57,547 bases of DNA from Minisyncoccota bacterium (GTDB lineage: Bacteria; Patescibacteriota; Minisyncoccia; JAHIHE01; JAGLIN01), in NCBI GenBank assembly GCA_028690055.1, contig JAQVBZ010000007.1:1-57547 (forward strand), read 5' to 3'. A program made the position numbers and the translations under genes. Under the pieces are notes generated by a model. That model was given only the letters and a program-made list of their open reading frames with translations, did not search any database and was not told the origin of the DNA. Positions 18,317 through 41,808 of the stretch are shown one piece after another. The stretch's first letter is position 1, and each line of letters begins with the position of its first letter.

Positions 18317-18403
18317 GGAAGGGTGGCTGAGTGGTTGAAAGCGCTGCTCTCGAAAAGCAGTAGACCTTAACGGGTCTCGAGGGTTCGAATCCCTCCTCTT
18401 CCG
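18317..18403 (+). tRNA. tRNA-Ser(CGA)
   Basis: GGAAGGG/CTCTTCC acceptor, CTGCT-CTCGAAA-AGCAG anticodon arm, long variable arm, GAGGG-TTCGAAT-CCCTC T-arm. Confidence 0.96.
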
Positions 18404-18526
18404 CATTCTGGAGGGATGAGAAGTTTATGCCCAGCATGGGTAAATCCCTCCTCTTCCGCATTCTGGAGGGATGAGAAGTTTATGCCCAGCATGGGTAAAT
18501 CCCTCCTCTTCCGCATTCTGGAGGGA
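18388..18526 (+). repeat. 55-bp tandem repeat (2.5 copies) built from the tRNA-Ser 3' end plus a 30-bp cassette
   Basis: AATCCCTCCTCTTCCGCATTCTGGAGGGA at 18388, 18443, 18498; cassette GGGATGAGAAGTTTATGCCCAGCATGGGTA at 18413 and 18468. Confidence 0.95.
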
Positions 18527-18572
18527 GTTGTACCTTCATATCTGCTATTCACGATATATTACTTTCTTCATC

Positions 18573-18679
18573 TGTCATTCCGGACTTGATCCGGAATCTT
18601 CGTTATATATCGTTAATGTTGTAAGATATACCGTTTATATCTAATATAACGAAGGTCCTGAAACAAGTTCAGGATGACA
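18573..18679. repeat. TGTCAT-tagged palindromic repeat, copy b
   Basis: tgtcattccggacttgatccggaatcttcgttatat...atataacgaaggtcctgaaacaagttcaggatgaca. Confidence 0.9.
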
Positions 18680-18778
18680 AGTTTGGACTGTTTATGATTA
18701 ATATTATACAAGCCTTATCCAAGAACTATCGCTATAAACACATATACCAACCAAACTCAGTGTTTTTTACTTTTAAAT

Positions 18779-18807
18779 AAAAACTCAACCACGACAGTTG
18801 AGTTTTT
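18779..18807. terminator. Bidirectional terminator
   Basis: AAAAACTCAAC-N7-GTTGAGTTTTT. Confidence 0.75.
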
Positions 18808-18827
18808 TGTTAACGAATTTTAGTAAA

Positions 18828-19658
18828 CTAGATATCCATCTCACCCCTTACTTCTTCGACAATCCCTTCTCTTTTTTTTCCTTCATCATCTTCTTTTTCC
18901 AGCCAAGCCCTGAGTTTTTTTGAAAGTATCCGCTGAACTGTTCCGTTCTGTAGCGCCAAACCAAAATACTTTACGGTTAGAGCCATCTTTTTGTCTGTAA
19001 TCCTACCGCTTTCTGACAGTTTTTCAAGCATTTCTCCGGCGGCATTTATATATTTAAGGTCCTGTTCAGGATCGTCGAGAATGGCCTTGATGACCTCTTT
19101 TGCTTTCCCTTCATAGCCCTCTCCTTCTTTAATGGCTTCAATTGCTTTCTCAATACGAGGAACAAGAAAGATTATAGAGGAAGCCGTGTCCTCGTCAATC
19201 ACACCTTCTTCTTCTAAAGTCTTTAGTAGCTCTTCATCCTGCAGAGCTTCGGCCAATTTTTCAACTACCTGATCCTTGATTTCTTCACTGTTTATTTCTA
19301 TTCCAAGCTTTTTGCATATTTTCTCGGTCGTTTCTCTTATCTTACCGGAATTCTTTTCCACATATTCTTCAGCCAGATCAAGCCGTTCTTCTTCACTTCT
19401 TTCTTCTTCATATTGTTTCCCCGCTTCTTCTGCCCCTTCGGCCGAAACATTGGCAGCATCTTGCATCTCCTCAATATCCCCTGACGTGCCCCCATCATCT
19501 TCTATCTTCTTAACTTTAGCCCTTCCATCTTCTTTTACTTCCTCTACAGCTGCTTGTACCCGCTCCGCACTTCCTACTATCGGATTTTCTTGACCCTGCT
19601 CTACGCTTTGCTCCGCCTTTTTATTATCAACCTCAAAATCTTTTTCATCATTCTCCAT
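18828..19658 (-). CDS. Acidic hypothetical protein (276 aa)
   Basis: Long open frame, strongly E/D-rich helical composition, terminator downstream. Confidence 0.7.
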   Translation of the reverse strand: MENDEKDFEVDNKKAEQSVEQGQENPIVGSAERVQAAVEEVKEDGRAKVKKIEDDGGTSGDIEEMQDAANVSAEGAEEAGKQYEEERSEEERLDLAEEYVEKNSGKIRETTEKICKKLGIEINSEEIKDQVVEKLAEALQDEELLKTLEEEGVIDEDTASSIIFLVPRIEKAIEAIKEGEGYEGKAKEVIKAILDDPEQDLKYINAAGEMLEKLSESGRITDKKMALTVKYFGLALQNGTVQRILSKKLRAWLEKEDDEGKKREGIVEEVRGEMDI

Positions 19659-19712
19659 ATTTCTTTTTTTAATATTTAATTATCCCGAGTTAACGATTGA
19701 TTCAAAACAACG

Positions 19713-19907
19713 CTATTGTTTATCATCATCCTGTACTCCGTCCAGCTTCTGCCTGACTTCCACAATTTTTCTCTCATTTATTCTTTGCATTATATTTTTA
19801 AATACACTATCTTGTCTCTCCGACAGCTCCCTGATTTTTGTTTTAAACCTCTCAAAGGCACCATGCCCCGAAGCTGTTTCTTCCGGAACTTTATCGTTTT
19901 GATCCAT
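19713..19907 (-). CDS. Small hypothetical protein
   Basis: AAGGA 7 nt before ATG 19907; amphipathic helix; same strand as neighbours. Confidence 0.55.
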   Translation of the reverse strand: MDQNDKVPEETASGHGAFERFKTKIRELSERQDSVFKNIMQRINERKIVEVRQKLDGVQDDDKQ

Positions 19908-20130
19908 TTTTATTTCCTTAGATTTGATTAATGGCATTCGAATGATATCGCTTTCCTACGATAGGTAAGCTTCTAATAATTATAAGACTATTACGTTTTT
20001 TGACAAATTTATATCACAAACATAATCAAAGACCGAACCCAAACAAAATGAATATAAAAAATCTGACCGGTAATACTCCCGGTCAGAAATAGCTGAAACG
20101 CTCAAATTCCTATTCGAATAACAGATATTT

Positions 20131-21570
20131 TTATTGCCAATACCCGCCCTGACAAGTTAATGTCTTCCCGAAACGATAAACCTTTTCGTCTTGACCATCC
20201 GCCAAAGCGCAGTAATCACATTTGTCCACCACATCGTCCCCATATCTGGCCAGTAACACGCGGTCTGTCCAAGCTTGATCGCATTCCCCTTGAGAAATCC
20301 CGTAATAAGTGCCCCCGCCTTCGTCGCAACCCGATATATAACCGTTTTTGATATTTTCATAAAGACTCATACTATTACCGCCTAGCGTCGTTCCCAATGT
20401 TACCCAATAAACCCAATGCTCATCGTCACCACCCTGCTCTTCCTGGTTCGTCACCAAGATAGCGCACGGATAAATCTCCTGGAAATCTCCTACTGATTTT
20501 TCTACATATTTCTTAGGCTCGGTCTTGGTTGTTGTAGTTCCCCCCTGCGTATTCTGCATCGTATTACTTGTGGAATAAACGATATCAAACACTCCACCCC
20601 AGTTCGCTTTATTAGTTCCTTCAAGCTCCCATAGTTCATCGGAATGCACCTGCGTATCAGCGGTAAGGTCATATACGTCTTTGACATCCTGTGTTTCATT
20701 GTCCTCAGATGAGGCCCCCGTGGCAGTATCTCCGGTAGCTGAGTTAGAGTCTATGTTGCCGTTTACGGTATACCCGTGCCGAGCATTCAGCTTGACCGAG
20801 ATAAATTTAAATCCGCACATATCTTTCCTTTCACACGCTACGTTACAATCAGTCTCACCTACAGGTAACGGAGTTTTTTCTTCAGTTAGACAGGTGCAAT
20901 ATCCGGTAAAATAGGGGTCACTGTTGGTCCTGGGGGAACCAGGGAAGATACAAGATAAATTTTTCTTCATCAACGCGACCTTATCTGAAGCAAGAGGTTC
21001 AAACACTGTCGCTCCTGATTTTATTTGTTCTGCCGTATCCAAACTCATTTCTCTCTGGTACCCCTCGGGACTGGTATAAATGACAGTTTGTACCCCGTTT
21101 CCGTTTGAGTCGATAGGTGAAGAAAAAGTCCCGACATAAGAAGCAGCTGCGTTATCCTTCGAAAAAGTGGCACCCGGTTGACGAAGATAGAGTACGTCAG
21201 GATTGATGGTGCCCACGATCACGTAAGAAAGGAGTGCCAGAAGCAGTCCCAAAATAGCGTCTTTGATGGTTTCTTTGGCACTGGAAACCGCACCTCCGCT
21301 GCCAGCCGCCATGATATATTTCATCCCCCCGATAATAAGCATCACCACCGCCACGATTCCGACGATACTCAAGAGAAAATTATAGATTCCTATCAAATAA
21401 TTGGAGATATTCACCTCGGTCGCATCCACCCCAGGGATTTTCACCAAAGGCTCATATCCGGTGGCATTATCAGTAGCAGCAATGTCAGAGGCGTATAGAC
21501 TGGAGGCACAAAAACCAGAAATCCAAACAGCAGATAACGCCAAAAAAACCCCGAAAGCGTTCTTTTTCAT
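20131..21570 (-). CDS. Pilin (TrbC/VirB2-like) domain fused to a Cys-rich extracellular domain
   Basis: Signal peptide, YLIGIYNFLLSIVGIVAVVMLIIGGMKYIMAAG...AKETIKDAILGLLLALLSYVIVGTINPDVL, then many Cys. Confidence 0.85.
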   Translation of the reverse strand: MKKNAFGVFLALSAVWISGFCASSLYASDIAATDNATGYEPLVKIPGVDATEVNISNYLIGIYNFLLSIVGIVAVVMLIIGGMKYIMAAGSGGAVSSAKETIKDAILGLLLALLSYVIVGTINPDVLYLRQPGATFSKDNAAASYVGTFSSPIDSNGNGVQTVIYTSPEGYQREMSLDTAEQIKSGATVFEPLASDKVALMKKNLSCIFPGSPRTNSDPYFTGYCTCLTEEKTPLPVGETDCNVACERKDMCGFKFISVKLNARHGYTVNGNIDSNSATGDTATGASSEDNETQDVKDVYDLTADTQVHSDELWELEGTNKANWGGVFDIVYSTSNTMQNTQGGTTTTKTEPKKYVEKSVGDFQEIYPCAILVTNQEEQGGDDEHWVYWVTLGTTLGGNSMSLYENIKNGYISGCDEGGGTYYGISQGECDQAWTDRVLLARYGDDVVDKCDYCALADGQDEKVYRFGKTLTCQGGYWQ

Positions 21571-21688
21571 TTTGATTTTCTTAAAATTTATATTTCGATC
21601 TTTTATAATAACTTCACTGAGAAATTAAAAAAATCTTTTTAATTTCGTCACTGCCTTTATTAAGTAAAAGGGGAACCGTCTGAAAGTA

Positions 21689-22960
21689 TCAAATACTGTT
21701 TACCGCTTTTCGAGTTTGCTTTTGTACTCGCATATAGTCTTCGTTAATTTTACCAAGCGTTTCATTCGCTTGCCTGACTGCTTTATTGTAATCATAATGA
21801 TTCCAAGCGTTCATAACCAAGAATAGCGGTAATATACCGAAGAAAGGTATGCCATCAAAGACAAAGAAGATTATCGCCCTAAGAAAGAGTTTCATAAGCC
21901 ATCGGGAAAACATTCCGTGACGGCTTCCACAAAGCGACAGCCAAAAAACAGAAATAATTAGCCCTAGCGCAATCCCCGTCAGAAGACCTGCTCCTGGAAT
22001 AAAATCAAGACAATCTTTGATAAGAGCAACAAAATAAGTAATTCCGATCATCATGGCCCCCACGACACCCCCTTTTTCCGCCTGCTTCGCCATTTTTTCC
22101 GCAGCTTTAGACAAGATACGCATTGCTCGGTCTCCCGCGAGAGAAATCGCAATCCTTAACGCTATCTTATTTTTCAATCCGTTAACCTCCATATTCCCCT
22201 TTATTCTCTCCTCTGCTATCTTACCGGATTCTTTTGCAGCTCCCGCCCTGGCACTGCCTATTTTTTGTGCCGAAGTTTTATTGTGAATTTCATCGAACGT
22301 AGCTTTCCTCCTTTCTTCTTCTGTCATCCCAACCCCTGATGCGGCCGAATTCACTTCAGGGCGACCGGGAGATTGAGAAACCGTTCCGATACGACCGCCT
22401 GTTCCGTTACGCAGATTCTGGTATGGGTCTGCTTCGCCTCGAGAGTCCTTCTGTTTTTGTAATTCAGCCTTTCTCCTTGCGCCCCCTTCAGCGCCTGGCA
22501 TCCTTAAATCCTCCGCCTGTTTTTTATTATAATCCTCTTTGGTCGGCGGTTTCTTTTCGCCTGCAGATTTCATCATCTGCTGATTGACTCTGCTATTTAT
22601 TGCACCGACACTGCCGGGAGTTTCATTTCCTGTCTCCGCTTGATTTGCTACACCATTTTGCGCCGTATCCCGACCTCCCAATCGCGCCATTTGCCTAGCG
22701 TTTTCTCCCGTATTCCCGAAGTCTACAAGACCTCCGTTCTGTGCCGTTCCCGTGTTTCCTGCTTGTTTTGTCATTCCATTTTGCGTCGATTCCGATTTTT
22801 TTCTCGTTGCCGCGGAAGCGACTTTATTTATACCCCCCTTTGCTTGATTTGCAGCTATATTTACAGCCTTATCTTCAATTCTATCTCTAAGCCCACCTGA
22901 AACACGCCCTCGAGCAGATACCCCTCCTTCACTTGATTGTGTTTTTTCTTCCTGTGGCAT
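21689..22960 (-). CDS. Hypothetical membrane protein with low-complexity N-terminus, in the T4SS-like operon
   Basis: G/N/Q/T-rich N-half, 3-4 TM helices at the C-terminus. Confidence 0.7.
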   Translation of the reverse strand: MPQEEKTQSSEGGVSARGRVSGGLRDRIEDKAVNIAANQAKGGINKVASAATRKKSESTQNGMTKQAGNTGTAQNGGLVDFGNTGENARQMARLGGRDTAQNGVANQAETGNETPGSVGAINSRVNQQMMKSAGEKKPPTKEDYNKKQAEDLRMPGAEGGARRKAELQKQKDSRGEADPYQNLRNGTGGRIGTVSQSPGRPEVNSAASGVGMTEEERRKATFDEIHNKTSAQKIGSARAGAAKESGKIAEERIKGNMEVNGLKNKIALRIAISLAGDRAMRILSKAAEKMAKQAEKGGVVGAMMIGITYFVALIKDCLDFIPGAGLLTGIALGLIISVFWLSLCGSRHGMFSRWLMKLFLRAIIFFVFDGIPFFGILPLFLVMNAWNHYDYNKAVRQANETLGKINEDYMRVQKQTRKAVNSI

Positions 22961-22976
22961 ATTTCAAAAAATTAGA

Positions 22977-24836
22977 TTACATATCGGCCATTCCCGACAA
23001 TTCTTTCTTGGCCTTTTCAATCTCCAGCAACTGCGCCGGATCGGAAGTTATAATTTGGTCTTCGGAATAGGAAGCTACAACCTTGATAGCCGCGCGCTTC
23101 GGACCGGCGAAGAAGATACCTTCACCGACGTTGCTCTCCAAAAGCAGGAATTTCTCTTCATCCGTAAGATAGAAGGTATCCACGATAACCTTGATACCGG
23201 CAGGGGATTGCTTGAGCAGCAGCTGGATGGAAGAGTTGGTCACGATCGGTTTACCGTATTTGGAACCCATAAAATCGGTAACATCCTGAGTGATAGTGGT
23301 AAGTCCCAGGAAATATTTTCTACACCGCTTAGCGATACTGAAGAGGAAGGAGGCGGCGTCTTCGTGCTGCATCATCCACCAAGCCTCATCCACTACCAGG
23401 ATTCTTTTCTTGCGCTTGGAACGGATAAGATTCCAAATGAAGTGGAGTACGAGGTACATGGCCACCGGACGGAGATCGTCTTCCATATCACGTATATTGA
23501 AAACGATGAACTTATTATCCGGATCGATATTGGTCTTATGATTCAAGAACCCCGCGAATGTTCCTTCTGTATACTTCTTGACTCTAGCAGCCAGACTCTC
23601 CGCTCCTACCATATTTTCCAATACCATCTGCAGTTCGGTCATTGTCGGCGGCTCCATTTTTGTGAAATCTGATTCGGCGGTAATATCCTTGATGGCATAA
23701 GACTCAGTGATTGCTTTATCCAAGATGGCATCCTCTTCCGGAGTGATGTCACTTATCATAACTTTAAGAAGTCCCGACACATTCACGATAGCACTGCGAA
23801 GCACGTCTCCCGGGTCTTCGTCCTCCAACGCCTTCGGTAGATCGAAAGGATTGATGTGGTTCTTGGAGGAAAGAGAAATCTTCATAAAGGTTCCTCCTGT
23901 CATCTCGCACAAATGCTTGTATTCATTCTCAGGGTCGATAACGATAACCTCCGTACTGAGCATCAGGCTTCTGAGGATTTCCAGCTTGACCGTATAGCTT
24001 TTTCCCGCACCAGACTTGGCAAAGATCACCATATTGGCATTTTCCATTGAGAACCGATCGAAGAGTACCAAACTGTTGTTGTGACGATTGATACCGTAGA
24101 GAATTCCCTGATTGGAAGTAAGGTCGCTTGAAACGAAGGGGAAGGTCGTGGAAAGTGGGGAAGTATTCATATTGTTCCCAACCATCAGTTTGTCATTCGC
24201 TAGCGGTAGCGTAGAGTTGAAGCCTCTTTCCGTCTGCATCATCGAATCTTTCATATAAACCAGTTTTGCTTCCAAAATCGCCTCGACTTTCAGCTCTTCC
24301 TTGCGGACCTCTTCCTCTGTATCCCCATACAGAGTGATATATAATCCGAATTGGAAGAAATGCTCAATGCCTTGCTGCAGGTCGTCCCGCAGATTTTCTA
24401 CATCCTGATAAGCGGTTTCCAATACAGGATCACGCACCAGTCCTTTATCCTCATTGATGGAAAGCTGCGACTGGATCCGGGTCACCACCTTACGCAGCTG
24501 CTTCAACACATCGACGGTATTCTGCGGATGGACGAACATCGCCACATCAAAGGTAGAATCCAAATTGATAATGGGCGAAAACCAGCTGGTCTGCAGGTAA
24601 CGTGGGTAAGCGTAAACAAAGAGTGTGGAGGCCAGCTTGTTATTGATTCTCACATAAGATGGCATGATTTGGAACACAGACGGCGCGATAATGTCTTTGA
24701 AAGATGCCAACCCCCTTTGATAAAGTTTTTCTGACTCAACCAACTCCGTCTTTTCCGCAACGCTCTGAGCGGAAACAGCAGTTTGCTGTTCGTTGGCTGC
24801 CCTTTTCGTTGCTTTTATTGTGTCTAAAATTCCCAT
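22977..24836 (-). CDS. VirB4-like conjugal-transfer ATPase
   Basis: Walker A AKSGAGKS, VIVIDPENEY, Walker B ILVVDEAW, RKY, ITQ, LLLKQ motifs. Confidence 0.92.
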   Translation of the reverse strand: MGILDTIKATKRAANEQQTAVSAQSVAEKTELVESEKLYQRGLASFKDIIAPSVFQIMPSYVRINNKLASTLFVYAYPRYLQTSWFSPIINLDSTFDVAMFVHPQNTVDVLKQLRKVVTRIQSQLSINEDKGLVRDPVLETAYQDVENLRDDLQQGIEHFFQFGLYITLYGDTEEEVRKEELKVEAILEAKLVYMKDSMMQTERGFNSTLPLANDKLMVGNNMNTSPLSTTFPFVSSDLTSNQGILYGINRHNNSLVLFDRFSMENANMVIFAKSGAGKSYTVKLEILRSLMLSTEVIVIDPENEYKHLCEMTGGTFMKISLSSKNHINPFDLPKALEDEDPGDVLRSAIVNVSGLLKVMISDITPEEDAILDKAITESYAIKDITAESDFTKMEPPTMTELQMVLENMVGAESLAARVKKYTEGTFAGFLNHKTNIDPDNKFIVFNIRDMEDDLRPVAMYLVLHFIWNLIRSKRKKRILVVDEAWWMMQHEDAASFLFSIAKRCRKYFLGLTTITQDVTDFMGSKYGKPIVTNSSIQLLLKQSPAGIKVIVDTFYLTDEEKFLLLESNVGEGIFFAGPKRAAIKVVASYSEDQIITSDPAQLLEIEKAKKELSGMADM

Positions 24837-24863
24837 ACTACTTTTATTTTATTTTTTTACGAA

Positions 24864-25544
24864 TTATGAAGCGAGGTCAAGGTCTGCGATGTCCGGCAAT
24901 CCTTTTTTCTCAACCGATTCCGGATTATACAAGTTATAATATAGCTCGATAAGTTCCTGAGTATTAAGCATCGTCATTCTCAGTCCCGCCCCGCTCAAGT
25001 TCTCCACAACGTGATCGACTCTCTGGAAAAGCTGGTCGCGATATTTCTCAAAGTTCCTGCGGTTCGCCATAATCTGCGGGGCATTGGCAACAGAAGCAAT
25101 CTTCGCCTTGACGTTGCCATCCTTGGACTCCGACAAAGAGAAGGGAACAACGATGTAGAAAGTCTTAGCCACGATGTTGGCCATTTTCACCAACCCATTG
25201 ATATATTCGACATAGCTCGTAATCTGCATACGAAGCAAGTCGTTAGTTTGCTTCTTTTCCTCTTCGCGCAAGACATCAAGATAAGTATCGATATTGAGAC
25301 GCCTGGAATTAATAACAATCTGTACCGAAAAATCCAAGGAGTTCAAAAAACTCTGATAGCGATAGATAATACCATCCTGCTCATCGATTGATTTGAGCGA
25401 GAAATTTATAGAAGAAACCATCAGCACTCCTCGCAAACTGCCGTTTTTCAAAACGACTACATTATCTTTTATTTCACTGATTTCAAGATATTTTTGTGAG
25501 CTTAGCCCTTTTTGGTCTTGCTTCTCTGGAGTAGACATTGCCAT
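24864..25544 (-). CDS. TraC-like/VirB4-associated protein of the CPR T4SS-like locus
   Basis: EIKDNVVVLKNG, SSINFSLKS.DEQ, FLNSLDF..QI, FYIVVPF; lies between PrgI and VirB4. Confidence 0.75.
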   Translation of the reverse strand: MAMSTPEKQDQKGLSSQKYLEISEIKDNVVVLKNGSLRGVLMVSSINFSLKSIDEQDGIIYRYQSFLNSLDFSVQIVINSRRLNIDTYLDVLREEEKKQTNDLLRMQITSYVEYINGLVKMANIVAKTFYIVVPFSLSESKDGNVKAKIASVANAPQIMANRRNFEKYRDQLFQRVDHVVENLSGAGLRMTMLNTQELIELYYNLYNPESVEKKGLPDIADLDLAS

Positions 25545-25704
25545 AGTAAAAGCTGTTAGAATTTAAGAAAAATCTAAAGTTGAAGTTTTATTTTCCTTCA
25601 AAACTGCAACTTTCTTTCTTCCTTCTGTTCTACTTTTAATATATGCAGGATATCATCTCCCGATCAGAGACTGTCTTCGATCTGATCAAGGATCAAGGGC
25701 AGGC

Positions 25705-25775
25705 TCTGAGGTAACCCGAAGGATCTCGTTATGTCCCGCGTAGTATCGGGATTCTTCGGATTACCTCAGAAGACA
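25705..25775. repeat. TGTCAT-family palindrome, copy c (left arm interrupted)
   Basis: ctgaggtaacccgaaggatctcg...cgggattcttcggattacctcagaagaca; TGTC displaced to about 25672 by a ~30-bp insert. Confidence 0.8.
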
Positions 25776-25780
25776 CAATT

Positions 25781-26233: not shown

Positions 26234-26289
26234 ATGATTGAAATTATATTTTTATTTTTTCGTTATTTAGGAAGGTCGGTACGATAAAG

Positions 26290-27639: not shown

Positions 27640-27645
27640 ACTCGT

Positions 27646-33670: not shown

Positions 33671-33788
33671 CTAAATGGAGTAGCGGGATTCATCCCGCGC
33701 TGCTATCCTATGCCTTTAAAACCCCCGCAATCGCACTTTTTATCCGCTTCGGACAACCGCGCAGGTTGAAACCTGCTACTCCATTTAG
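33671..33788. repeat. GTAG-tagged REP doublet, copy 2
   Basis: 14-bp perfect terminal inverted repeat CTAAATGGAGTAGC/GCTACTCCATTTAG. Confidence 0.9.
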
Positions 33789-33838
33789 CGGTAGTGACAA
33801 TAAAAAAATCAGGCCCGAAGACCCGATTTTTCATATAA

Positions 33839-35875: not shown

Positions 35876-35935
35876 CTTATTTAAAAGGTTATTTTTACAC
35901 TTCATTATAGCAGAAAAAAGGGATTTGCCCAAAGG

Positions 35936-35963
35936 TTGACAAGGGCAGGAATAGAGCTAGAAT
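35936..35963 (+). promoter_or_regulatory. sigma70 promoter
   Basis: TTGACA-N16-TAGAAT. Confidence 0.6.
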
Positions 35964-35997
35964 AAAACCAAAAAACGACTTCAGAAAAGGAGGAACA

Positions 35998-36312
35998 ATG
36001 GATTCTATTCAATATACACTTATCAATTTAATATTTTTTACCGGAACCGTCTCCATCTTAGCACTAGGCAAGAGAAAAGGGCTATGGCTAGACGACACAC
36101 TACCGGAAGAACAAAGACGACTCTTCTTGAATGTCGGGCGTCAAAAAGACTCATTAGCCATTGTTGGTATCATCTTTTTTACACTCTACATAATTGCAAA
36201 AATCAATTTTTTGACCAGTTTCTTGACCGTTATATTTATAAACGAAATCCACTCTTATTATATACTTAGAAGCTACGTCAGGATTGCGCGGATTGAGTTA
36301 TGCAAAGAATGA
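35998..36312 (+). CDS. Small membrane protein (104 aa)
   Basis: Own promoter, SD AGGAGG, three hydrophobic segments, terminator at 36300..36330. Confidence 0.7.
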   Translation: MDSIQYTLINLIFFTGTVSILALGKRKGLWLDDTLPEEQRRLFLNVGRQKDSLAIVGIIFFTLYIIAKINFLTSFLTVIFINEIHSYYILRSYVRIARIELCKE

Positions 36313-36336
36313 ACTTCTTTGCATTTTTATTAAATC

Positions 36337-36364
36337 TTGACAAAATAAAGATATACTCTATAAT
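36337..36364 (+). promoter_or_regulatory. Consensus sigma70 promoter with a ~200-nt leader before the LysM-CHAP gene
   Basis: TTGACA-N16-TATAAT. Confidence 0.75.
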
Positions 36365-36574
36365 CTTAATATCGTTGACACTATTTTGACCCCATGTTAA
36401 ATTTTGAATGTAAGCTTAAATATTAATTTTTTAGCTTTTCGCTGATTGGCCAAAGCAATGAGTCGCAACCAGATAGTTATCCAGAAAGGTGACCATTAGG
36501 CGCAAAAGTTTCAAGGAAATAAAACAATTAGTACAATTATAGAAAAACCGACCGTAGAGCAGGATACTGATTCT

Positions 36575-37780
36575 ATGCTAGAAATCGATAAAAATCCCTG
36601 TCTAACCGGGAAAGTGATTTGTGGTAGTTTTGGTTTTATTAGATCCAATATTACTGTTTTGTCAGTGATTTTTTTGTTGTCTCTAGTATCAGTTTCCAAT
36701 GCTACAGTCTCAAACTACAACTTCCAAAAAGGAAGCCTTTTATTTGGCTATTTAGAAGGCAAAGGAGGTGGTTATGACGGGGATGGCAACATTACCGTCA
36801 ATAATAATCAGAATTACAACAGCGCCGCCGGCAGCGAAACCAACCTGATCAAGGTAGCCAGCGCCGACACCTCTTTCTGGGACAACTATACCGCCAGTAA
36901 CACCGCGCTTAATGACGAGAGTGGAGAAGGTGCCCAAACTCAGACGATTTCCTCTGGACAAGGAGAAAAAGTCAATTTTGAGCCGATGACCGTACAGGGG
37001 AACTTCCTAATTTCTCCTTCCAGCTTCTACGATGGCACATCCGAAGAACAAAGATACGGCCTAATCAAATACACAGTAGAGGACGGAGATACCCCCAGCT
37101 CTATTTCCAATTCTTTCGGCATCGGTCTTTATACTTTTCTCTGGGCTAATAATATGAAAGTAGGCGACTACATCAAGCCGGGACAAGTAGTGGAAATTCT
37201 ACCGATAAACGGCGTAAAACACGCCGTCACAGACAAAGATACCATCGAAGCCATAGCTACCAAATATAAGGCAGACATACAGGAAATTATCATTTATAAC
37301 GAGCTTCCCGCCAACGGCAAGCTGACTGCAGGAAGAACCCTTGTCGTACCGAACGGCGAGAAAGAAAAGCCTATTGCGGAACCAAAACCGGTTGTTACTC
37401 CAACGACCACCAGTCAAGGCACCGTGGTTTCCTCCAGCAAATATGTAGCCGCAACAACAGTTCAGAAAGGGCATTCCTTCCCTTACGGACAGTGTACCTG
37501 GTATGTCTCCACTCGATTCTATGTTCCATGGGGTGGAAACGCCAAGGCTTGGCTCGCCAACGCTGCCGCTTATGGCTACTCTACAGGCAGAACCCCTGTT
37601 GCCGGCTCAATTATGGTGACAAACGAACACCGAATATATGGCCACGTGACGTACGTCGAATCAGTAACCGCCACCACAATCACCATTTCTGAAATGAACT
37701 ATACAGGCTGGGCACGAAAGAGCGTAAGAGTCGTCCCAAGAAACAGCTCAGTGATTATGGGTTTCATCTATGCCAAGTAA
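36575..37780 (+). CDS. LysM + CHAP peptidoglycan hydrolase
   Basis: Two LysM repeats (YTVEDGDT, HAVTDKDT), FPYGQCTWYV, WGGNAKAW, YGHVTYVE, SEMNY. Confidence 0.93.
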   Translation: MLEIDKNPCLTGKVICGSFGFIRSNITVLSVIFLLSLVSVSNATVSNYNFQKGSLLFGYLEGKGGGYDGDGNITVNNNQNYNSAAGSETNLIKVASADTSFWDNYTASNTALNDESGEGAQTQTISSGQGEKVNFEPMTVQGNFLISPSSFYDGTSEEQRYGLIKYTVEDGDTPSSISNSFGIGLYTFLWANNMKVGDYIKPGQVVEILPINGVKHAVTDKDTIEAIATKYKADIQEIIIYNELPANGKLTAGRTLVVPNGEKEKPIAEPKPVVTPTTTSQGTVVSSSKYVAATTVQKGHSFPYGQCTWYVSTRFYVPWGGNAKAWLANAAAYGYSTGRTPVAGSIMVTNEHRIYGHVTYVESVTATTITISEMNYTGWARKSVRVVPRNSSVIMGFIYAK

Positions 37781-37848
37781 AGAATCAATCAAATATAAAA
37801 AAACGAAAGCCCTGCTTCCGTTTTTTGTTGCAAATCAAAGCGCCCCTA

Positions 37849-37961
37849 CTAAATGGAGTAGCGGGTTTTAACCCGCGCGGCTATCCTATGCCTTTAAAAC
37901 CTTCGAAATCAAGCGTTTTATCCGCCTCGGACAACCGCGCAGACTGAAGTCTGCTACTCCG
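37849..37961. repeat. GTAG-tagged REP doublet, copy 3
   Basis: Left end CTAAATGGAGTAGCGGG identical to copy 2; right hairpin GCAGACtgaaGTCTGC. Confidence 0.9.
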
Positions 37962-38031
37962 AATAAAAAAGCAACGATTGATCGGTCATTGACAAACCGC
38001 CCAAAAAAGCTAAACTGTAATAGTAAATTAC

Positions 38032-38105
38032 GGGTTCGTAGCTCAGTTGGTTAGAGCGCCACATTGACATTGTGGAGGTCGGAAGTTCGAGTCTCCCCGG
38101 ACCCA
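38032..38105 (+). tRNA. tRNA-Val(GAC)
   Basis: CCACA-TTGACAT-TGTGG anticodon arm; promoter TTGACA-N16-TAAACT at 37989..38016. Confidence 0.95.
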
Positions 38106-38110
38106 CCCAA

Positions 38111-38142
38111 AATAAAAATCCGCCGAGTGAGGCGGGTTTTTT
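38111..38142 (+). terminator. Terminator after tRNA-Val
   Basis: TCCGCC-gagtga-GGCGGG then T-tract. Confidence 0.75.
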
Positions 38143-38151
38143 GATGTGTAC

Positions 38152-38238
38152 AATACGTGTATAATACGTGTATACATTATACATGTATTGCCTTTCTATA
38201 TAATACATGTATAATACGTGTATACATTATACATGTAT
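38152..38238. repeat. Two 37-bp direct repeats (period 50), each a 13-10-13 inverted repeat, upstream of the Fic gene
   Basis: ATACATGTATAAT-N10-ATTATACATGTAT; units 38152..38188 and 38202..38238 are 36/37 identical. Confidence 0.9.
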
Positions 38239-38261
38239 CATAAAACAATTAACCTATAAAT

Positions 38262-39605
38262 ATGCTATTCAAGCTAGAAAAACCTGATTTGTCAAAAATG
38301 AGGGGCAATAGAATCGTAGAGTTAATGGAAAATAAAGAGCTACAGCAGATAGCGAGAAAAACAATGAGCCCCGATTATTTATATTGGGATAAAATTAAAT
38401 ATCGTTTTAAGCAAACATTGCCTAAAGGTGTGTCAACAGAAGAGTTATGGGCACTGACAAAATTTATACGCAAATATTTTTCGGAACAAACAATCACCCC
38501 TATAAAAAATGAAAAGGGAGAAAAATTTTCTTTTATAAAGTTATCACGCTTCGAACAATTCCTCCATGAAACCGATTTGAATATGAGGGGCAGTTTATTT
38601 GTGAATTCAGGAGATGACAAAGAAAAAAGAAAATACCAATTTATATCCCGAGGTATTATGGAAGAGGCGATTGCGTCCTCGCAACTGGAAGGAGCAAATA
38701 CTACGCGAAAAGCAGCTAAAGAATTCCTGAGGGAAGGAAGAACACCAAGAACCAAGGACGAGAAAATGATTCTGAACAGTTACCATGCTAGAAAAGCTAT
38801 AGAAGAAAAATACAAAAAAGAAAAACTAGATTTACAAACCATCTTTGAATTGCACAGAATATTGACGATAGATACGGTCAAAGATGAAGAAATAGGACGT
38901 TTTAGAACCGACAAAGACGATATAGTGGTCGCAAATAATATTGAAAATATAGTCTATCACGTTCCACCAAAAGAGATATTTGTAAAAAAGGAAATCAAAG
39001 AATTGATAAAGTTCGCCAATGACGAAACAGAAACCCAGTTTATCCATCCGGTAACAAAAGCCATTTTGATTCATTTCTGGTTGGGATACCTCCATCCCTT
39101 TACAGATGGCAATGGGCGCCTCGCTAGAGCATTGTTCTACTGGTATTTGTCGAAAAAAGATTATTGGGCCTTTAATTATTTGCCAATCTCTAAAAACATA
39201 AAGAATTCCCAAACGCAGTACGGAATGGCTTATGTGCTGGCAGAACAAGACGACTGCGATCTTACATATTTTATTGATTATAATATAGATAAGATACAAC
39301 TGGCCATAAAAGATTTTGAAGCCTATGTTGAAAAGAAAAGAAAAGAAAATATCGAAATTTCCAAAATTTCCAAATCAAAATACAATTTCAATGACAGGCA
39401 GCTTCAGTTACTGCAATATCTTAATGGTAACAGATATGGAAAAACATCAGTTTCGGTCTATATGAATATAAATAATCTAAGAAGCAGGATAACAGCTTCT
39501 ACGGATTTAAAAAAACTAAAAGAGCAGGGGTTCCTGTATGCCAAGAAAAAAGGCAAAGAGGTCTTCTATTTTGCCACAAAAAAGATCGATGAACTGTTTG
39601 AATAA
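38262..39605 (+). CDS. Class II Fic-family protein with probable C-terminal HTH
   Basis: Canonical HPFTDGNGRLAR motif, inhibitory helix SSQLEG, C-terminal TASTDLKKLKEQGFL; AT-rich. Confidence 0.92.
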   Translation: MLFKLEKPDLSKMRGNRIVELMENKELQQIARKTMSPDYLYWDKIKYRFKQTLPKGVSTEELWALTKFIRKYFSEQTITPIKNEKGEKFSFIKLSRFEQFLHETDLNMRGSLFVNSGDDKEKRKYQFISRGIMEEAIASSQLEGANTTRKAAKEFLREGRTPRTKDEKMILNSYHARKAIEEKYKKEKLDLQTIFELHRILTIDTVKDEEIGRFRTDKDDIVVANNIENIVYHVPPKEIFVKKEIKELIKFANDETETQFIHPVTKAILIHFWLGYLHPFTDGNGRLARALFYWYLSKKDYWAFNYLPISKNIKNSQTQYGMAYVLAEQDDCDLTYFIDYNIDKIQLAIKDFEAYVEKKRKENIEISKISKSKYNFNDRQLQLLQYLNGNRYGKTSVSVYMNINNLRSRITASTDLKKLKEQGFLYAKKKGKEVFYFATKKIDELFE

Positions 39606-39622
39606 TATTTTGAATTAATATA

Positions 39623-40570
39623 ATGAATAAAGTCACCAAAACCATCCACATCACCGCTAACAACCACGGTCAGCGCCTCGATAAATTCTTGGCTGATTTC
39701 GATTTGGAAAAATCCCGCGCGGCTTGGCAGAAGCTTATCAAGAGCGGAAAGGTTTTAGTAAATGATAACGCGACTGAGGCAAACTATTCGATCAAGACTG
39801 CTGACAAAATTGAAATTTTAAAAGAAGACCTACCGGTAGAAAGAGCAATGTCCGTTCCCGACATTAAAATCATCTACGAAGACGAGAACGTAATCGTGAT
39901 AGATAAGCCCATCGGCGTGGTGGCGCAAAGAACAGAAACAAGCGATGCGCCTGCGGTCACTGATTTTTTGGAAAATCATTTTCCTGCAATCAAAAAAGTA
40001 GGAGAGGACGAACAGCGCAGCGGCATAGTGCATCGCCTCGACAAGGACACTTCCGGAATTATGATTGCCGCCAAAAATCAGGAAGCGTTTGAATTCCTGA
40101 AAGACAGATTCAAGAAGAGGGAAGTGCAAAAACTTTATACTGCACTGGTTTACGGCAAAGTCGAACCCGAAAAAGGGGAGATAGATTTTGCCATCGGCCG
40201 CAATCCCAAATCACCGTGCAAACAGACTATCGTCAGAAATCCCGATACTTCCACCGTCAAATGCCGAGTGGCGCGTACGCTCTATCGGACGATTAAAAGC
40301 TCCGAAGATTATTCTCTGCTTGAAGTCGAGCTCAAAACCGGCCGGATGCACCAGATTCGGGTACATATGAAAGCCATCGGACATCCCGTCGTAGGCGACC
40401 CCAAATATGCCACACCGAAGCTCCTTCAAAGCACCCCGGGGCTCAAAAGACAGTTTTTACACGCCAGCGAGCTTAAAATCACGCTTCCCGACGGCAAAAA
40501 GGGTATATTTCACTCAGAACTGCCAAACGACCTACGATCCTTCCTCAAAAAACATTCTGACCTTGACTAA
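39623..40570 (+). CDS. rluD: RluA-family pseudouridine synthase with S4 domain (RluD-like)
   Basis: RLDKFL S4 domain, VHRLDKDTSG, KTGRMHQIRVH, GHPVVGDPKY. Confidence 0.92.
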   Translation: MNKVTKTIHITANNHGQRLDKFLADFDLEKSRAAWQKLIKSGKVLVNDNATEANYSIKTADKIEILKEDLPVERAMSVPDIKIIYEDENVIVIDKPIGVVAQRTETSDAPAVTDFLENHFPAIKKVGEDEQRSGIVHRLDKDTSGIMIAAKNQEAFEFLKDRFKKREVQKLYTALVYGKVEPEKGEIDFAIGRNPKSPCKQTIVRNPDTSTVKCRVARTLYRTIKSSEDYSLLEVELKTGRMHQIRVHMKAIGHPVVGDPKYATPKLLQSTPGLKRQFLHASELKITLPDGKKGIFHSELPNDLRSFLKKHSDLD

Positions 40571-40591
40571 ACGTTTTTTTTACATTACTAT
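40563..40591 (+). promoter_or_regulatory. sigma70 promoter whose predicted +1 coincides with a long hairpin
   Basis: TTGACT-N17-TACTAT, +1 about 40598. Confidence 0.6.
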
Positions 40592-40597
40592 GAAGTA

Positions 40598-40767
40598 GTC
40601 TAAGAGCTTACTCAAGACCTTTCTTTCGTTGCGAAAACTTCAAATTTTGTGCGAAAAACCTGAAAGTTGAGAAAGGCTATAATAATAACCTGACGAGACT
40701 TGAAGATTTTGCAGCCAAAATTTGGAGTTTGCAGCAGAAAACGAAGGTCTTGAGTAAGCTCTGAGAC
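40598..40767 (+). ncRNA. Candidate ~170-nt rod-shaped RNA or leader (or MITE) upstream of rplS
   Basis: 19-bp perfect inverted repeat 40603..40621 / 40744..40762 plus internal stems with G-U pairs. Confidence 0.45.
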
Positions 40768-40811
40768 ATTTCTTTTATATTGTTTGAAATTAACTAAGAT
40801 AAAATACGAAA

Positions 40812-41375
40812 ATGGCAATCAGATTAATTGACTTCAACCACACCGGAACCAAGGAGGATCTGCCGGAAATCAAACCGGGACACGTGGTAAAAGTCCACCA
40901 GAAGATTACAGAAACAAAAGTAACTGGGAAGAAGCAGGAAACCAAAGAAAGAATCCAGATTTTCGAAGGTTTGGTCATCGGTGTTAAAGGCGGAAACAAC
41001 ATCACTGCTACTATTACCGTGCGCAAGATTTCCGGAAACATCGGAGTAGAAAGAATTTTTCCACTGAACTCTCCTTCCATCGCCAAGATCGAGATTTCCA
41101 AGATCACCAAGGCTCGTCGCGCCAAACTGAACTATATGCGTGACCGTATCGGAAAAGCCACTAAACCAAAAGGAGAATTGGCCACCGAGGAAGACAACAA
41201 GCCAAAAGTGAAAAAAGGTATTGAAGCGAAAGTTGAAGAAGTGAAAGAAGTACTTATAGAAGAAACTCCGGTTGAAGTAGTAGTCGAAGAAACAGTTGCG
41301 ACCGCAGAAGAGGTAAAAACCGAAGAAGTAAAAGCGGAAGAAACCGTCGCAAAAGCTCCGGAAGAGAAGAAGTAA
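40812..41375 (+). CDS. rplS: 50S ribosomal protein L19 with acidic C-terminal tail
   Basis: PEIKPGHVVKVH, RIQIFEGLVI, TITVRKISGNIGVERIFPLNSP, RRAKLNYMR. Confidence 0.97.
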   Translation: MAIRLIDFNHTGTKEDLPEIKPGHVVKVHQKITETKVTGKKQETKERIQIFEGLVIGVKGGNNITATITVRKISGNIGVERIFPLNSPSIAKIEISKITKARRAKLNYMRDRIGKATKPKGELATEEDNKPKVKKGIEAKVEEVKEVLIEETPVEVVVEETVATAEEVKTEEVKAEETVAKAPEEKK

Positions 41376-41494
41376 TCTAACGGTTGTTTACAAAACTTAT
41401 TTTTACAGATAAAATTAGTTAGTGATATTACGGTTATCTTAATTTATAGCTCCCTGCTCCGAGCCTTTCACCACCGGGAGCCATAAGTTAGTTC

Positions 41495-41577
41495 GTCGGA
41501 GTGGCGGAATTGGTATACGCAACAGGTTGAGGGCCTGTGCTCGCAAGAGCGTGAGGGTTCAAGTCCCTCCTTCGACA
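41495..41577 (+). tRNA. tRNA-Leu(GAG)
   Basis: ACAGG-TTGAGGG-CCTGT anticodon arm, long variable arm. Confidence 0.95.
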
Positions 41578-41627
41578 CAGACACGACGGACAATAATTCC
41601 TACCTTATAGCTTCGGCTATGAGATTA

Positions 41628-41701
41628 GGGCGCTTAGCTCAGTTGGCTAGAGCATCTCGTTTACACCGAGAGGGTCGGGGGTCCGAATCCCTCAGCGCCC
41701 A
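41628..41701 (+). tRNA. tRNA-Val(TAC), with atypical T-loop TCCGAAT
   Basis: GGGCGCT/AGCGCCC acceptor, TCTCG-TTTACAC-CGAGA anticodon arm. Confidence 0.92.
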
Positions 41702-41760
41702 CAAAGAAGATAGATTAAAATAGAAAAAAGCTGTCTAATTTAATATATATTAGAAGGCAA

Positions 41761-41808
41761 GGGATGATGAGTTTATGCCCCAGAGGGGTAAATCCCTCAG
41801 CGCCCACA
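41761..41808 (+). repeat. 30-bp cassette plus duplicated 18-bp 3' end of tRNA-Val(TAC)
   Basis: GGGATGATGAGTTTATGCCCCAGAGGGGTA then AATCCCTCAGCGCCCACA (identical to 41686..41703). Confidence 0.92.

Follow-up and report, generated by a model that had tools for sequence, protein, structure and literature searches.

The window analysed here, a 57,547-nucleotide stretch of a Minisyncoccota bacterium genome (contig JAQVBZ010000007.1), carries three copies of a short cassette joined to re-copied tRNA 3′-ends, and these are members of a mini-cassette family that spans many bacterial phyla and at least eleven tRNA isotypes. The closest described system is the E. coli RtT repeat (Rfam RF00391; rttR, tpr); the covariance-model matches between the two are reciprocal but weak, and the architecture is identical. 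We lean towards reading each unit as a miniature relative of RtT: a small RNA module, derived from its parent tRNA, that mimics the 3′-half of that tRNA.

Cassettes behind tRNA-Ser and tRNA-Val

Nine tRNAs are recognized in the window by ARAGORN and Rfam, and the cassette, GGGATGAGAAGTTTAT-hairpin-AAAT fused to a copied tRNA 3′-end, follows Ser(CGA) in 2.5 repeats and Val(TAC) once. The features are listed below, with scores for the mini-cassette model (R1).

18317..18404, + strand: tRNA-Ser(CGA) gene (ARAGORN; Rfam tRNA 59.3 bits)
18388-18405, + strand: tail copy 0, the last 18 nt of tRNA-Ser, AATCCCTCCTCTTCCGCA (sequence)
18406..18445, + strand: Ser unit 1 (pattern match; R1 71.3 bits; predicted fold)
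18443..18460, + strand: tRNA-Ser tail copy 1 (identical to 18388-18405)
18461..18500, + strand: Ser unit 2, equal to unit 1 shifted by 55 bp (TRF, 100% identity; R1 64.1 bits)
18498..18515, + strand: tRNA-Ser tail copy 2 (sequence; TRF)
18516..18526, + strand: truncated third Ser unit (TRF array end 18526; sequence)
41628..41702, + strand: tRNA-Val(TAC) gene (ARAGORN; Rfam)
41703..41759, + strand: A/T-rich spacer from tRNA-Val to the cassette (sequence; comparison with a relative)
41760..41793, + strand: Val-locus cassette (pattern match; R1 56.9 bits)
41791..41808, + strand: tRNA-Val tail copy, AATCCCTCAGCGCCCACA (identical to the own end of tRNA-Val)

A 38-nt consensus matches exactly at 18413, 18468 and 41761 only, all on the + strand, and none is expected (100 shuffles), so that the three copies of the preliminary description stand. 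At the Ser locus, a 55-bp unit is repeated 2.5 times with 100% identity over 18388-18526 (TRF). In unit 1, a 4-nt trailer (TTCT) precedes the 5′-arm GGAGGG (18410-18415); then come the T-loop-like box AUGAGAAG (18416-18423) followed by UUUAU, and the inner hairpin GCCCAGCAUGGGU (18429-18441) followed by AAAU; tail copy 1 then runs from AAT through the 3′-strand of the T-stem and the 3′-strand of the acceptor to GCA. The third unit keeps the trailer TTCT and the 5′-arm GGAGGGA only and diverges thereafter. The 5′-arm starts 6 nt past the ARAGORN end of tRNA-Ser on the same strand, and 56 nt past that of tRNA-Val, again on the same strand; the Val cassette runs from the 5′-arm AGGG through the box AUGAUGAG and UUUAU to the hairpin GCCCCAGAGGGGU and AAAU. 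In predicted folds the Ser copies form a stem of 8 bp including AU/AU pairs, and the Val copy a stem of 4 plus 2 bp. Open reading frames of 57 codons at 18416 and 18471 are by-products.

The comparison between the two loci made in the preliminary description was reproduced throughout. Ser and Val cassettes are identical at 24 of 30 positions, with four of the six differences in the loop and the loop-closing pair of the inner hairpin (TGCCCA-gca-TGGGTA vs TGCCCC-aga-GGGGTA); these include an A-T to C-G swap, a compensatory change by which the hairpin is preserved. The re-copied tRNA 3′-end starts with AATCCCTC, at A58 of the T-loop, and runs to the discriminator and CA, and of the nine tRNAs in the window none but Ser(CGA) and Val(TAC) has GAATCCCTC. 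The cassette contains no enzyme. TGTCAT starts 46 nt past the Ser array (18573) and 9 nt past the Val copy (41818), and these sites are the ends of long imperfect palindromes, 18573-18679 and 41818-41955. Arrays of more than one copy are also found in independent assemblies, among them L055, L020, L039, L052 and the relative L024.

Linkage, covariation and constraint across the family

In total, 126 cassette instances were collected from Patescibacteria, Clostridia, Bdellovibrionales, gammaproteobacterial MAGs and others. A cassette usually lies 5-62 nt 3′ of a same-strand tRNA whose tail is copied, mostly Ser or Tyr, and most loci are single-copy. A same-strand tRNA is present within 700 nt upstream in 95 of the 126 instances, and in 79 of these 95 the tail copy agrees over its first 10 nt with the end of that tRNA; the 79 are distributed over Ser (34), Tyr (17), Gln (6), Ala (5), Val, Asn and Lys (4 each), Pro (2) and Leu, Arg and Asp (1 each). 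Five claims first made from the window alone hold over 126 instances: the cassette is specifically joined to the 3′-ends of unrelated tRNAs, the unit is a rebuilt T-stem with an insert-bearing loop, compensatory change preserves the inner hairpin, no enzyme is encoded, and plain att duplication is an inadequate explanation. The further claim that the insert replaces TTCG has to be adjusted: the box occurs across the family as UUCGA or UGAGA, and since sister variants keep UUCGA, the box is the T-loop analogue and the real insert is the hairpin after it. UUCRA and UGNRA are the two known consensus classes of T-loops (bioRxiv 10.1101/2022.12.26.521914), and the UGAGA of the window fits the latter in sequence.

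The arms of the cassettes covary with the local T-stem. Among the alignment cells compared, 92% are paired, as against 33-54% in slid controls, and double changes amount to 58 cells vs 20 in shuffles, none of 500 shuffles reaching 58. The inner hairpin varies from 11 to about 46 nt between its fixed GCCC...GGGU base; these lengths are not multiples of three, and therefore no reading frame is conserved. Its closing pair is G·U in 56 cases and G-C in 4, and G·U is valid on the + strand only. RNAalifold alone calls the inner hairpin only. The caps are mostly GNA triloops closed by C-G, which are more typical of stable DNA hairpins than of RNA.

How much of the tRNA 3′-half is rebuilt differs among members. 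In Clostridia, some copies are complete minihelices of acceptor and T-arm with an NCCA end: L194 is predicted to form one with a full 7-bp acceptor and an ACCA tail (z = -4.2), and an Ala copy, L196, keeps G3·U70. Family-wide, acceptor pairing is modestly above shuffled controls (26/116 vs 17.8/116). A coaxial T-stem and acceptor helix, a loop of T-loop-type sequence and an NCCA end are also features of laboratory minihelices, the tRNA-like domain of tmRNA and viral 3′ tRNA-like structures, to which the family is alike in these respects. Unlike those mimics, cassettes are encoded as satellites of their cognate tRNA gene, and the window copies carry an extra hairpin in the T-loop and are not full minihelices, their pairing being confined to the T-stem with 0-1 acceptor bp.

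Selective conservation was seen at the orthologous Val locus of one relative with about 79% nucleotide identity. There the 5′-arm and box are 94% conserved, and the stretch from AAAT to ACA (41790-41808) is conserved at 19 of 19 nt, whereas the flanking spacers show 55% (tRNA to cassette) and 44% identity. The Val cassette and its tail copy are under constraint, with 94-100% identity against 44-55% for the spacers.

Kinship with E. coli RtT

The 178-bp repeat distal to tyrT was already known in the late 1970s, and RtT RNA followed in 1991, when Bosl and Kersten reportedly described E. coli RtT as a processed RNA. To our knowledge, the function of RtT was never established, and its kinship with the cassettes therefore supplies no mechanism. 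At the sequence level the match is weak. The Rfam RtT model aligns to the window cassette with 17.7 bits (E = 0.22) through GGAUGAGAA and the AUCC tail, ranking second of eight weak Rfam matches behind a eukaryotic snoRNA, and no RtT reaches the gathering score of 45 bits anywhere in the window. RtT is the only biologically plausible match in Rfam. In the reverse direction, the mini-cassette model matches all three E. coli rtT repeats with 20.9 bits (E = 0.0017), the best background score being 11.3 bits, and both alignments run through GGAUGAGAAG. An already described element, which the preliminary description had named as a possible refutation, has thus been found, if weakly: by its architecture and its GGAUGAGAAG box, it is the tyrT-distal repeat of E. 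coli.

The correspondence in layout is close. Both sit immediately behind a tRNA gene, in the same orientation as the gene, and form tandem repeats, and each unit ends in the last ~19 nt of the tRNA from A58 of the T-loop; in E. coli it ends with ...AATCCTTCCCCCACCACCA, at CCA, and the RefSeq rttR RNA, annotated on the tRNA strand, stops precisely at this CCA in the tail copy. In E. coli, the T-stem and the first part of the acceptor 3′-strand are paired with the 5′-arm GGGGAAGG, immediately after which comes AUGAGAAG-YUU; in the window, too, a 5′-arm paired with the tail copy leads straight into the box, and the junction is ...UAAAUCC as compared with ...UAAUCC in E. coli. The two differ in the interior, which is ~80 nt long and includes the annotated 29-codon tpr frame in E. 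coli but is a 13-nt hairpin in the window, and in the leader, which measures 77 nt in E. coli and 4-58 nt in the window. RtT homologues also occur beside other tRNAs (Asn, Lys) and were detected as RNA (PMC4986893). The reports of RtT that were found concern only Gammaproteobacteria and Tyr, Asn or Lys tRNAs (PMC4986893; PMC7542023), and no report of RtT in Patescibacteria or Firmicutes, or as a 30-nt core, was found in the literature. The RtT design thus recurs in many phyla, reduced to about 30 nt that comprise a T-stem mimic, a T-loop-type pentaloop and an inserted hairpin, a minimal core open to mutation, pull-down and assay.

A proposed RNA module and competing explanations

As a tRNA-derived RNA module, the unit would form by pairing of its 5′-arm with the copied 3′-strand of the T-stem, and in some members also with the acceptor 3′-strand. 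The stem would be closed by a T-loop-type pentaloop, UGAGA in the window and UUCGA in sister variants, with the extra hairpin of variable length sitting where T-loop nucleotides 59-60 normally bulge, and the tRNA's own acceptor strand, discriminator and (C)CA would make up the end of the unit. Transcription would probably occur together with the tRNA. A terminator-like hairpin with a T-run lies between tRNA and cassette in 31 of 49 long-spacer cases, which argues against simple co-transcription, and read-through would operate where such a terminator intervenes; no -10 element at a fixed position was found upstream of the cassette. The transcript may then be trimmed by the enzymes that mature tRNA ends (RNase P, 3′-trimming, CCA enzyme), and the mature unit could act as a mimic of, or competitor for, a factor that reads the acceptor/T-arm half of that tRNA. 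The 18-20-nt direct repeats of the tail would give rise to tandem copies through unequal recombination or replication slippage.

The preliminary description favoured a mobile T-loop-inserting element, a view that did not hold up. In its present form, a recombinase or transposase acting in trans would insert a non-autonomous element at the T-loop or 3′-end of tRNAs carrying ...AATCC(C)..., duplicating the tail, with later tandem expansion. We judge this unlikely, although several observations favour it: the spread is patchy (of 120 tRNA-Ser genes that share this T-arm and acceptor, only 2 are accompanied by an RtT-like unit), distant phyla and 11 isotypes have almost the same core with several tRNAs affected per genome, copy number varies among related genomes (L055 vs L020), units of one array can carry different terminators (L005), and 'orphan' copies are preceded by only the ...CCGCA of a tRNA end (L016, L024, L034, L036, L048). 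Three genomes (L037/L036, L048, L012) have large serine recombinase genes adjacent to copies or near them, but neither window locus has a recombinase or integrase by it (Pfam, nine flanking ORFs). The family is moreover essentially absent from mobile DNA collections: the AUGAGAAG form gave 0 matches in 2.9 million viral contigs (IMG/VR), the UUCGAAG form only two real viral-contig matches, both beside a Thr-Tyr tRNA pair, and PLSDB and INPHARED gave none. Crossing over upstream of the acceptor strand would bring in the acceptor of the donor tRNA, yet 79 of 95 copies fit the local tRNA; some 5′-arms match the acceptor 5′-strand, which is non-contiguous with the T-arm and is not produced by any simple insertion or target duplication; and the Val copy keeps its orthologous position under selective conservation. 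Retro-copying is unlikely as well, since the window tail copy lacks the CCA expected of mature-tRNA cDNA. A MITE or similar non-autonomous transposon was rejected: apart from the arm pair, which changes with the tRNA, there is no inverted repeat, copies occur only in the 3′-flanks of tRNAs, and the 18-19-nt 'duplication' that would be its target-site duplication ends at the tRNA end. Less probable still is a purely DNA-level role, in which cassette and tail are a leftover or active att site or a landing pad for islands that target tRNA 3′-ends. The tRNA 3′ direct repeat is the classic att signature, shared with tRNA att sites and CIME-type elements together with tandem accumulation and the lack of an enzyme inside; a serine recombinase ORF runs straight through the cassette into the tRNA in L037 and L036, orphan junctions break at ...CCGCA, and the GNA-triloop caps would suit DNA. 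Against this, the repeats are only 8 bp (Ser) or 58 bp (Val) apart, so no integrated element is present; recombinases occur in only 3 of about 100 genomes; and E. coli RtT is annotated as an RNA (RefSeq rttR) and reportedly processed. Unlike att sites or CIMEs, the cassettes have one non-tRNA core common to many tRNAs, kept as a structure whose arms and hairpin covary, with nothing between the repeats and no family members found on phages or plasmids. A recombinase core site would leave the box, the arm covariation and the variable hairpin tip unexplained, and the earlier statement that plain att duplication is inadequate for the shared cassette is borne out.

The opposite strand might encode a small antisense RNA whose 5′-part is complementary to the 3′-strand of acceptor and T-stem, followed by the hairpin and a conserved tail and ending at a bidirectional terminator. 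An A-run before and a T-run after make many of the intervening terminators bidirectional, A/T-rich -10-like sequences often follow the tail copy, and in the outer extension of the 5′-arm A·C exceeds G·U, such A·C being G·U on the minus strand. The core stems, however, hold 62 G·U against 7 A·C, favouring the + strand, and the near-invariant G·U at the hairpin base would become A·C on the minus strand; there is no positional promoter signal, rttR of E. coli is annotated on the tRNA strand, and full minihelices ending in NCCA make sense on the + strand only. We therefore give an antisense RNA very little credence. A functionless by-product of slippage at tRNA 3′-ends, kept tRNA-like by gene conversion, is just as improbable: short direct repeats promote slippage and the adjacent tRNA could homogenize the tail copy, but it is the non-tRNA part (box and hairpin base) that is most conserved, across phyla and in the relative (94%, with spacers at 44-55%), and the changes in arms and hairpin are compensatory. 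Repeats of a type III toxin-antitoxin system (ToxI-like) were also considered and rejected, as most loci are single-copy and the ORFs downstream in the window have no toxin endoribonuclease domain.

An extension of the RNA-module reading, which we offer tentatively and hold to be doubtful, is that the units are expressed 'half-tRNAs' matured by RNase P and the CCA enzyme, whose complete forms would be aminoacylated by the cognate synthetase. They would then be a natural class of minihelices kept beside selected tRNA genes, either as decoys for acceptor-end factors or toxins or as non-translational amino-acid carriers, and the window copies would be reduced, T-arm-only members. The complete minihelices of Clostridia allow concrete tests of RNase P cleavage, CCA addition, charging and protection from acceptor-end toxins. 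The cassettes, absent from Rfam at threshold, also explain 'partial tRNA' repeats that could be mistaken for integration scars. Finally, cassettes appear to mark the landing sites of serine-recombinase islands, which matters for the reading of tRNA-adjacent islands in Patescibacteria.

Units behind tRNA-Ser and tRNA-Val in the window

Nine tRNA genes were found concordantly in the window by ARAGORN and Rfam, and a scan of the window at Rfam gathering thresholds returned tRNAs and no other RNA family. The genes for tRNA-Ser(CGA) and tRNA-Val(TAC) are each followed by a cassette, made up of a 5′ arm, a T-loop-like box, an inner hairpin and AAAU, which is fused to a copy of the 3′ end of the upstream tRNA (the tail copy).

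18317-18404: tRNA-Ser(CGA), ARAGORN and Rfam
18388-18526: Ser array, 3′ of tRNA-Ser(CGA); 55-bp unit, 2.5 copies, 100% identity
41628-41702: tRNA-Val(TAC)

Each Ser unit runs from a trailer TTCT through the 5′ arm GGAGGG, AUGAGAAG, UUUAU, the hairpin GCCCAGCAUGGGU and AAAU to CCCTCCTCTTCCGCA, which comprises the 3′ strand of the T-stem, the 3′ strand of the acceptor stem and the GCA of tRNA-Ser itself. At the Val locus, a 57-nt A/T-rich spacer lies between the tRNA and a single unit, in which the same core is joined to the Val tail AATCCCTCAGCGCCCACA. A 38-nt cassette consensus has exactly three matches in the window and none in 100 shuffles, confirming the claim of the preliminary description that cassette-tail units exist behind both tRNAs. 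Sequence comparison also bears out its statements that the Ser and Val cassettes agree at 24 of 30 positions and that their differences centre on the hairpin loop; GAATCCCTC is indeed confined to these two among the window tRNAs, and the TGTCAT positions noted after both arrays are correct.

The window is syntenic with JBAXYM010000003.1, a contig of a Patescibacteria MAG, at 78-80% nucleotide identity, and this relative has cassettes at both corresponding places. At the Val locus, identity to the relative is 100% in the tRNA, 55% in the spacer, 94% in the 5′ arm and box, 77% in the hairpin (its stem being kept), 100% in the tail copy and 44% in the downstream linker. Carriage is sparse in contrast to this constraint: among 120 tRNA-Ser genes with the T-arm and acceptor of the window's gene, mainly from Pelagibacter and Saccharibacteria, two have any unit resembling RtT, the RNA of the E. 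coli tyrT-distal repeat.

Family members and their fold

The first family search, for exact GGGATGANNAGTTTATGCCC in a single genome from each GTDB species, yielded 65 loci, of which about 55 run on into the hairpin-GGGTAAATCC and a tRNA-like 3′ strand. The second took the hairpin and 3′ junction (ATGCCCCNNNGGGGTAAATCC) as its anchor and yielded 79 loci, in which the 5′ box is thus free of selection bias. Chance or unrelated matches, among them coding sequence as well as repeat families of another kind from Nitrospinota and Synergistaceae, were left out: about 10 loci of the 65, and about 19 rows of the 68 in the box comparison made from the second search. The box occurs as AUGAGAAG in Patescibacteria, Bdellovibrionales and gammaproteobacterial MAGs, as AUUCGAAG in Clostridia/Oscillospiraceae and some Falkow-, Peregrini- and Gracilibacteria, and as AGUCGAAG in Clostridiales, 3′ of tRNA-Tyr.

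The linkage to tRNA ends seen in the window recurs in the pooled set of 126 instances. A same-strand tRNA lies at most 700 nt upstream in 95, and in 79 of these the tail copy is identical over its first 10 nt to the end of that tRNA; 13 of the 31 instances lacking such a tRNA are within 200 nt of a locus edge. Ser is the commonest upstream isotype (34), ahead of Tyr (17), Gln (6) and Ala (5); Val, Asn and Lys follow with 4 each and Pro with 2, and Leu, Arg and Asp occur once each. Related clusters differ in copy number, with two Asn units and one Ser unit at locus L055 and one Asn unit and two Ser units at L020 (L-numbers denote loci retrieved from other genomes). Spacing between tRNA and unit is bimodal, 0-30 or 40-60 nt, and 31 of the 49 long spacers contain a terminator-like hairpin with a T-run; a second, different terminator follows many units. 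As to a promoter of their own, TANNNT/TATAAT showed no positional enrichment 5′ of the cassette or on the opposite strand past the tail copy.

The 5′ arm follows the T-stem of the upstream tRNA, as in GGG/CCC, UGG/CCA (Asn), GGUGG/CCACC (Tyr) and ACAGG/CCUGU (Pro). In a gap-free alignment of 60 sequences (51 in an earlier set), the specified structure is 92% paired, slid controls reach 33-54%, and double-change cells number 58 against 20 in shuffles, none of 500 shuffles attaining this number. RNAalifold, left unaided, recovers the inner hairpin alone, and the outer stem therefore rests on the specified-structure counts. The base of the inner hairpin is fixed (U-A, G.U and three to four C-G pairs), and its tip varies in size, from a triloop up to about 40 additional nucleotides. 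Minimum free energy folds predict a stem, a 10-nt 5′ internal loop (GAGAAGUUUA), the hairpin, one bulged A and the stem again.

The UUCGA variant of the box is the tRNA T-loop consensus (UUCRA), and UGAGA fits UGNRA, the T-loop class that dominates in riboswitches (bioRxiv 10.1101/2022.12.26.521914). The two differ at positions 2-3 only and share U1, R4 and A5. Since both match T-loop consensus classes, a T-arm that retains its T-loop is the better description of the unit, in which the box would be the T-loop analogue and the hairpin would be inserted at the usual bulge of nucleotides 59-60. The preliminary description had the TTCG of the T-loop replaced by an insert; instead, the T-loop appears to be kept and a hairpin added. 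The box is not copied from the adjoining tRNA, as at L206, where the tRNA has UUUGAAU and the cassette AUUCGAAG.

Some members form complete minihelices. The unit at L194, GGGGGAU-A-GGUGG-[box and hairpin]-CCACC-AUCCCCC-A-CCA, contains the entire acceptor 5′ strand of the adjacent tRNA-Tyr, linked via one A to the T-stem, and its predicted fold is perfect, with ACCA free (z = -4.2). In an Ala unit (L196), positions 1-6 pair with 67-72 and G3.U70 is retained. This is a feature of a subset, at least six of seven acceptor pairs being present in 26 of 116 instances against 17.8 of 116 in shuffled controls, and the window copies are not complete minihelices.

Relation to RtT and the readings considered

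In a permissive Rfam scan, the Ser array matched RtT (RF00391) at 17.7 bits (E = 0.22), with an alignment spanning GGAUGAGAA on the 5′ side and the AUCC-tail on the 3′ side; this was the sole sensible lead, and the snoRNA, miRNA and CRISPR-repeat matches were set aside as noise. The distal repeat of E. coli K-12 tyrTV (178 bp) reads ...GGGGAAGG-AUGAGAAG-CUU...(about 80 nt)...GAGUAAUCCUUCCCCCACCACCA; the 3′ end of the RefSeq rttR RNA falls on the tail copy's CCA, and the box AUG is the annotated start of the tpr frame. R1, a covariance model from mini-cassettes only, gives 20.9 bits (E = 0.0017) on each of the three E. coli repeats; its highest match to unrelated sequence in 59 kb reaches 11.3 bits, and ordinary tRNAs go unscored. 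RtT and the mini units have in common the place behind a tRNA, tandem repetition, the A58 junction, an arm reaching into the acceptor strand and a box with the same eight nucleotides in the same position. A match to an already described element, which the preliminary description had named as counting against its proposal, therefore holds in architecture and box and not in the strength of the Rfam score. The difference in size is spanned by long-insert forms from other phyla, namely L010 (3′ of a Moranbacteria tRNA-Tyr), L135 and L148, and the RtT Rfam model has no match at E ≤ 1 in these three. RtT is said, from work by Bosl and Kersten in 1991, to affect the relA-dependent starvation response, and reportedly has been given no other function. 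RNAs of the RtT family have been detected beside Asn and Lys tRNAs by RT-PCR and Northern blot in Pasteurellaceae and Erwinia, with copy number varying between strains (PMC4986893, PMC7542023).

The best-supported reading, to which we give slightly better than even credence, is that the unit is a putative miniature RtT-type RNA mimicking the 3′ half of its own tRNA. The kind is already known, though unexplained, from E. coli; what looks new against Rfam 15 and the literature searched is the miniature core, the reading of the box as a T-loop, the occurrence of minihelix members and the range of phyla. An att or landing site, for which regenerated tRNA ends might be taken, is improbable. Minihelix members such as L194 carry the acceptor 5′ strand of the tRNA, and this cannot arise by simple duplication of the tRNA 3′ part or by att crossover. 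An antisense RNA is very improbable, as the core stems contain 62 G.U against 7 A.C, a bias in favour of the tRNA strand being the one that functions as RNA; in the arm's outer extension the bias is reversed (A.C over G.U), which is attributed to A-rich flanks. We hold a neutral by-product to be just as improbable. Coding was rejected: 57-codon ORFs do begin at the box AUG in both Ser units, and hairpin lengths of 11, 12, 13, 14, 15, 22, 23, 24 and more nucleotides leave no common reading frame. A retro-copy of mature tRNA was dismissed in the case of the window, since the copies there end in ...GCA/...ACA as the genes do, not in ...CCA. By eye, the 3′ strand lacks the GA or CUGA partners required for a K-turn or C/D box; small ribozymes, the hammerhead among them, were likewise considered by eye, and no Rfam ribozyme scored.

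That the unit is a DNA element mobilised in trans, close to the original proposal of a non-autonomous element targeting tRNA genes, is unlikely, if less so than an att site; orphan units and serine recombinases speak for it. Five orphan units (L016, L024, L034, L036, L048) are preceded by ...CCGCA only and no tRNA, and three Patescibacteria genomes have large serine recombinase genes (Resolvase, Recombinase and Zn_ribbon_recom domains) next to units or in their vicinity.

L037 2585-4171 (-): serine recombinase gene
L036 7691-7999 (-): serine recombinase gene
L048 1-936 (-): serine recombinase gene
L012 6-644: serine recombinase gene

Against mobilisation, no recombinase occurs among the Pfam-scanned neighbours of either window locus (T4SS-pilin-like protein, Fic, pseudouridine synthase, L19, GNAT). 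The family has no match in PLSDB or INPHARED and is nearly absent from IMG/VR, where the sole real cassettes on 'viral' contigs are L254 2073 and L255 11409; a phage or plasmid origin was rejected accordingly. The recombinase and orphan cases are read tentatively as islands integrating at the tRNA end and separating the tRNA from its satellite, not as the agent spreading the cassette.

Neighbouring elements and minor observations

The recombinase reading frame of L037 traverses the terminator, tail copy and cassette into tRNA-Ser, and L036 has the same cassette and recombinase end beside non-tRNA DNA. The Ser-type array of the relative (L024 7906-8000, minus strand) has just ...ACCGCA of the tail and no tRNA-Ser upstream, and synteny with the window ends there. 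Both IMG/VR cassettes are 3′ of a tRNA-Thr/tRNA-Tyr pair, and their tail copies diverge at the extreme end (CCCCGTCA for CCCCCACCA), as if a prophage junction lay within the tail copy.

Long imperfect palindromes starting with TGTCAT and ending with ATGACA lie 46 nt (18573-18679) and 9 nt (41818-41955) downstream of the window cassette loci. The one at the Val locus has an 81% conserved counterpart at the corresponding position in the relative, on whose contig further, related copies are found (L024 1966-2097, L057 5247-5382), and the palindrome resembles a dispersed hairpin or a repeat of MITE type, distinct from the cassette. A weak R1 match at 18662-18734 corresponds to the right-hand arm of the palindrome and was rejected as a cassette. 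The hairpin ATGCCCCGNAGGGGTAAATCC also occurs in multi-copy repeats of Nitrospinota (L188, L216, L219, L220, L237, L246, L248) and Synergistaceae (L203, L218, L222, L247) that have no T-loop box, tRNA tail or neighbouring tRNA; these are distinct families, possibly REP- or MITE-like, which share the hairpin by chance.

Elsewhere in the window, tRNA-Val(GAC) is followed (region 38032-39605) by an A/T-rich tandem repeat of 11 and 26 bp (38146-38242) and a Fic/DOC-family gene (38262-39605). A 1281-codon ORF with no Pfam match (14275-18120), containing Glu/Lys-rich tandem repeats (16008-16330), lies upstream of tRNA-Ser, and the T4SS-pilin-like ORF is at 20131-21570.

Scanned at Rfam gathering thresholds, 20 related loci yielded tRNAs and one Gut-1 RNA (RF01706, 57.5 bits, above threshold), at L206 4706-4780 (-) in an Oscillospiraceae MAG, directly 3′ of the cassette's terminator; this is probably a coincidental meeting of intergenic RNA genes. 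Sub-threshold matches (23-34 bits) to sX4, a Xanthomonas sRNA (RF02223), at L050 4652-4791, L052 2286-2396 and L148 887-1040 cover the entire tRNA-Ser and the first nucleotides of the downstream unit, and sX4 itself may be a transcript of tRNA-Ser and its trailer.
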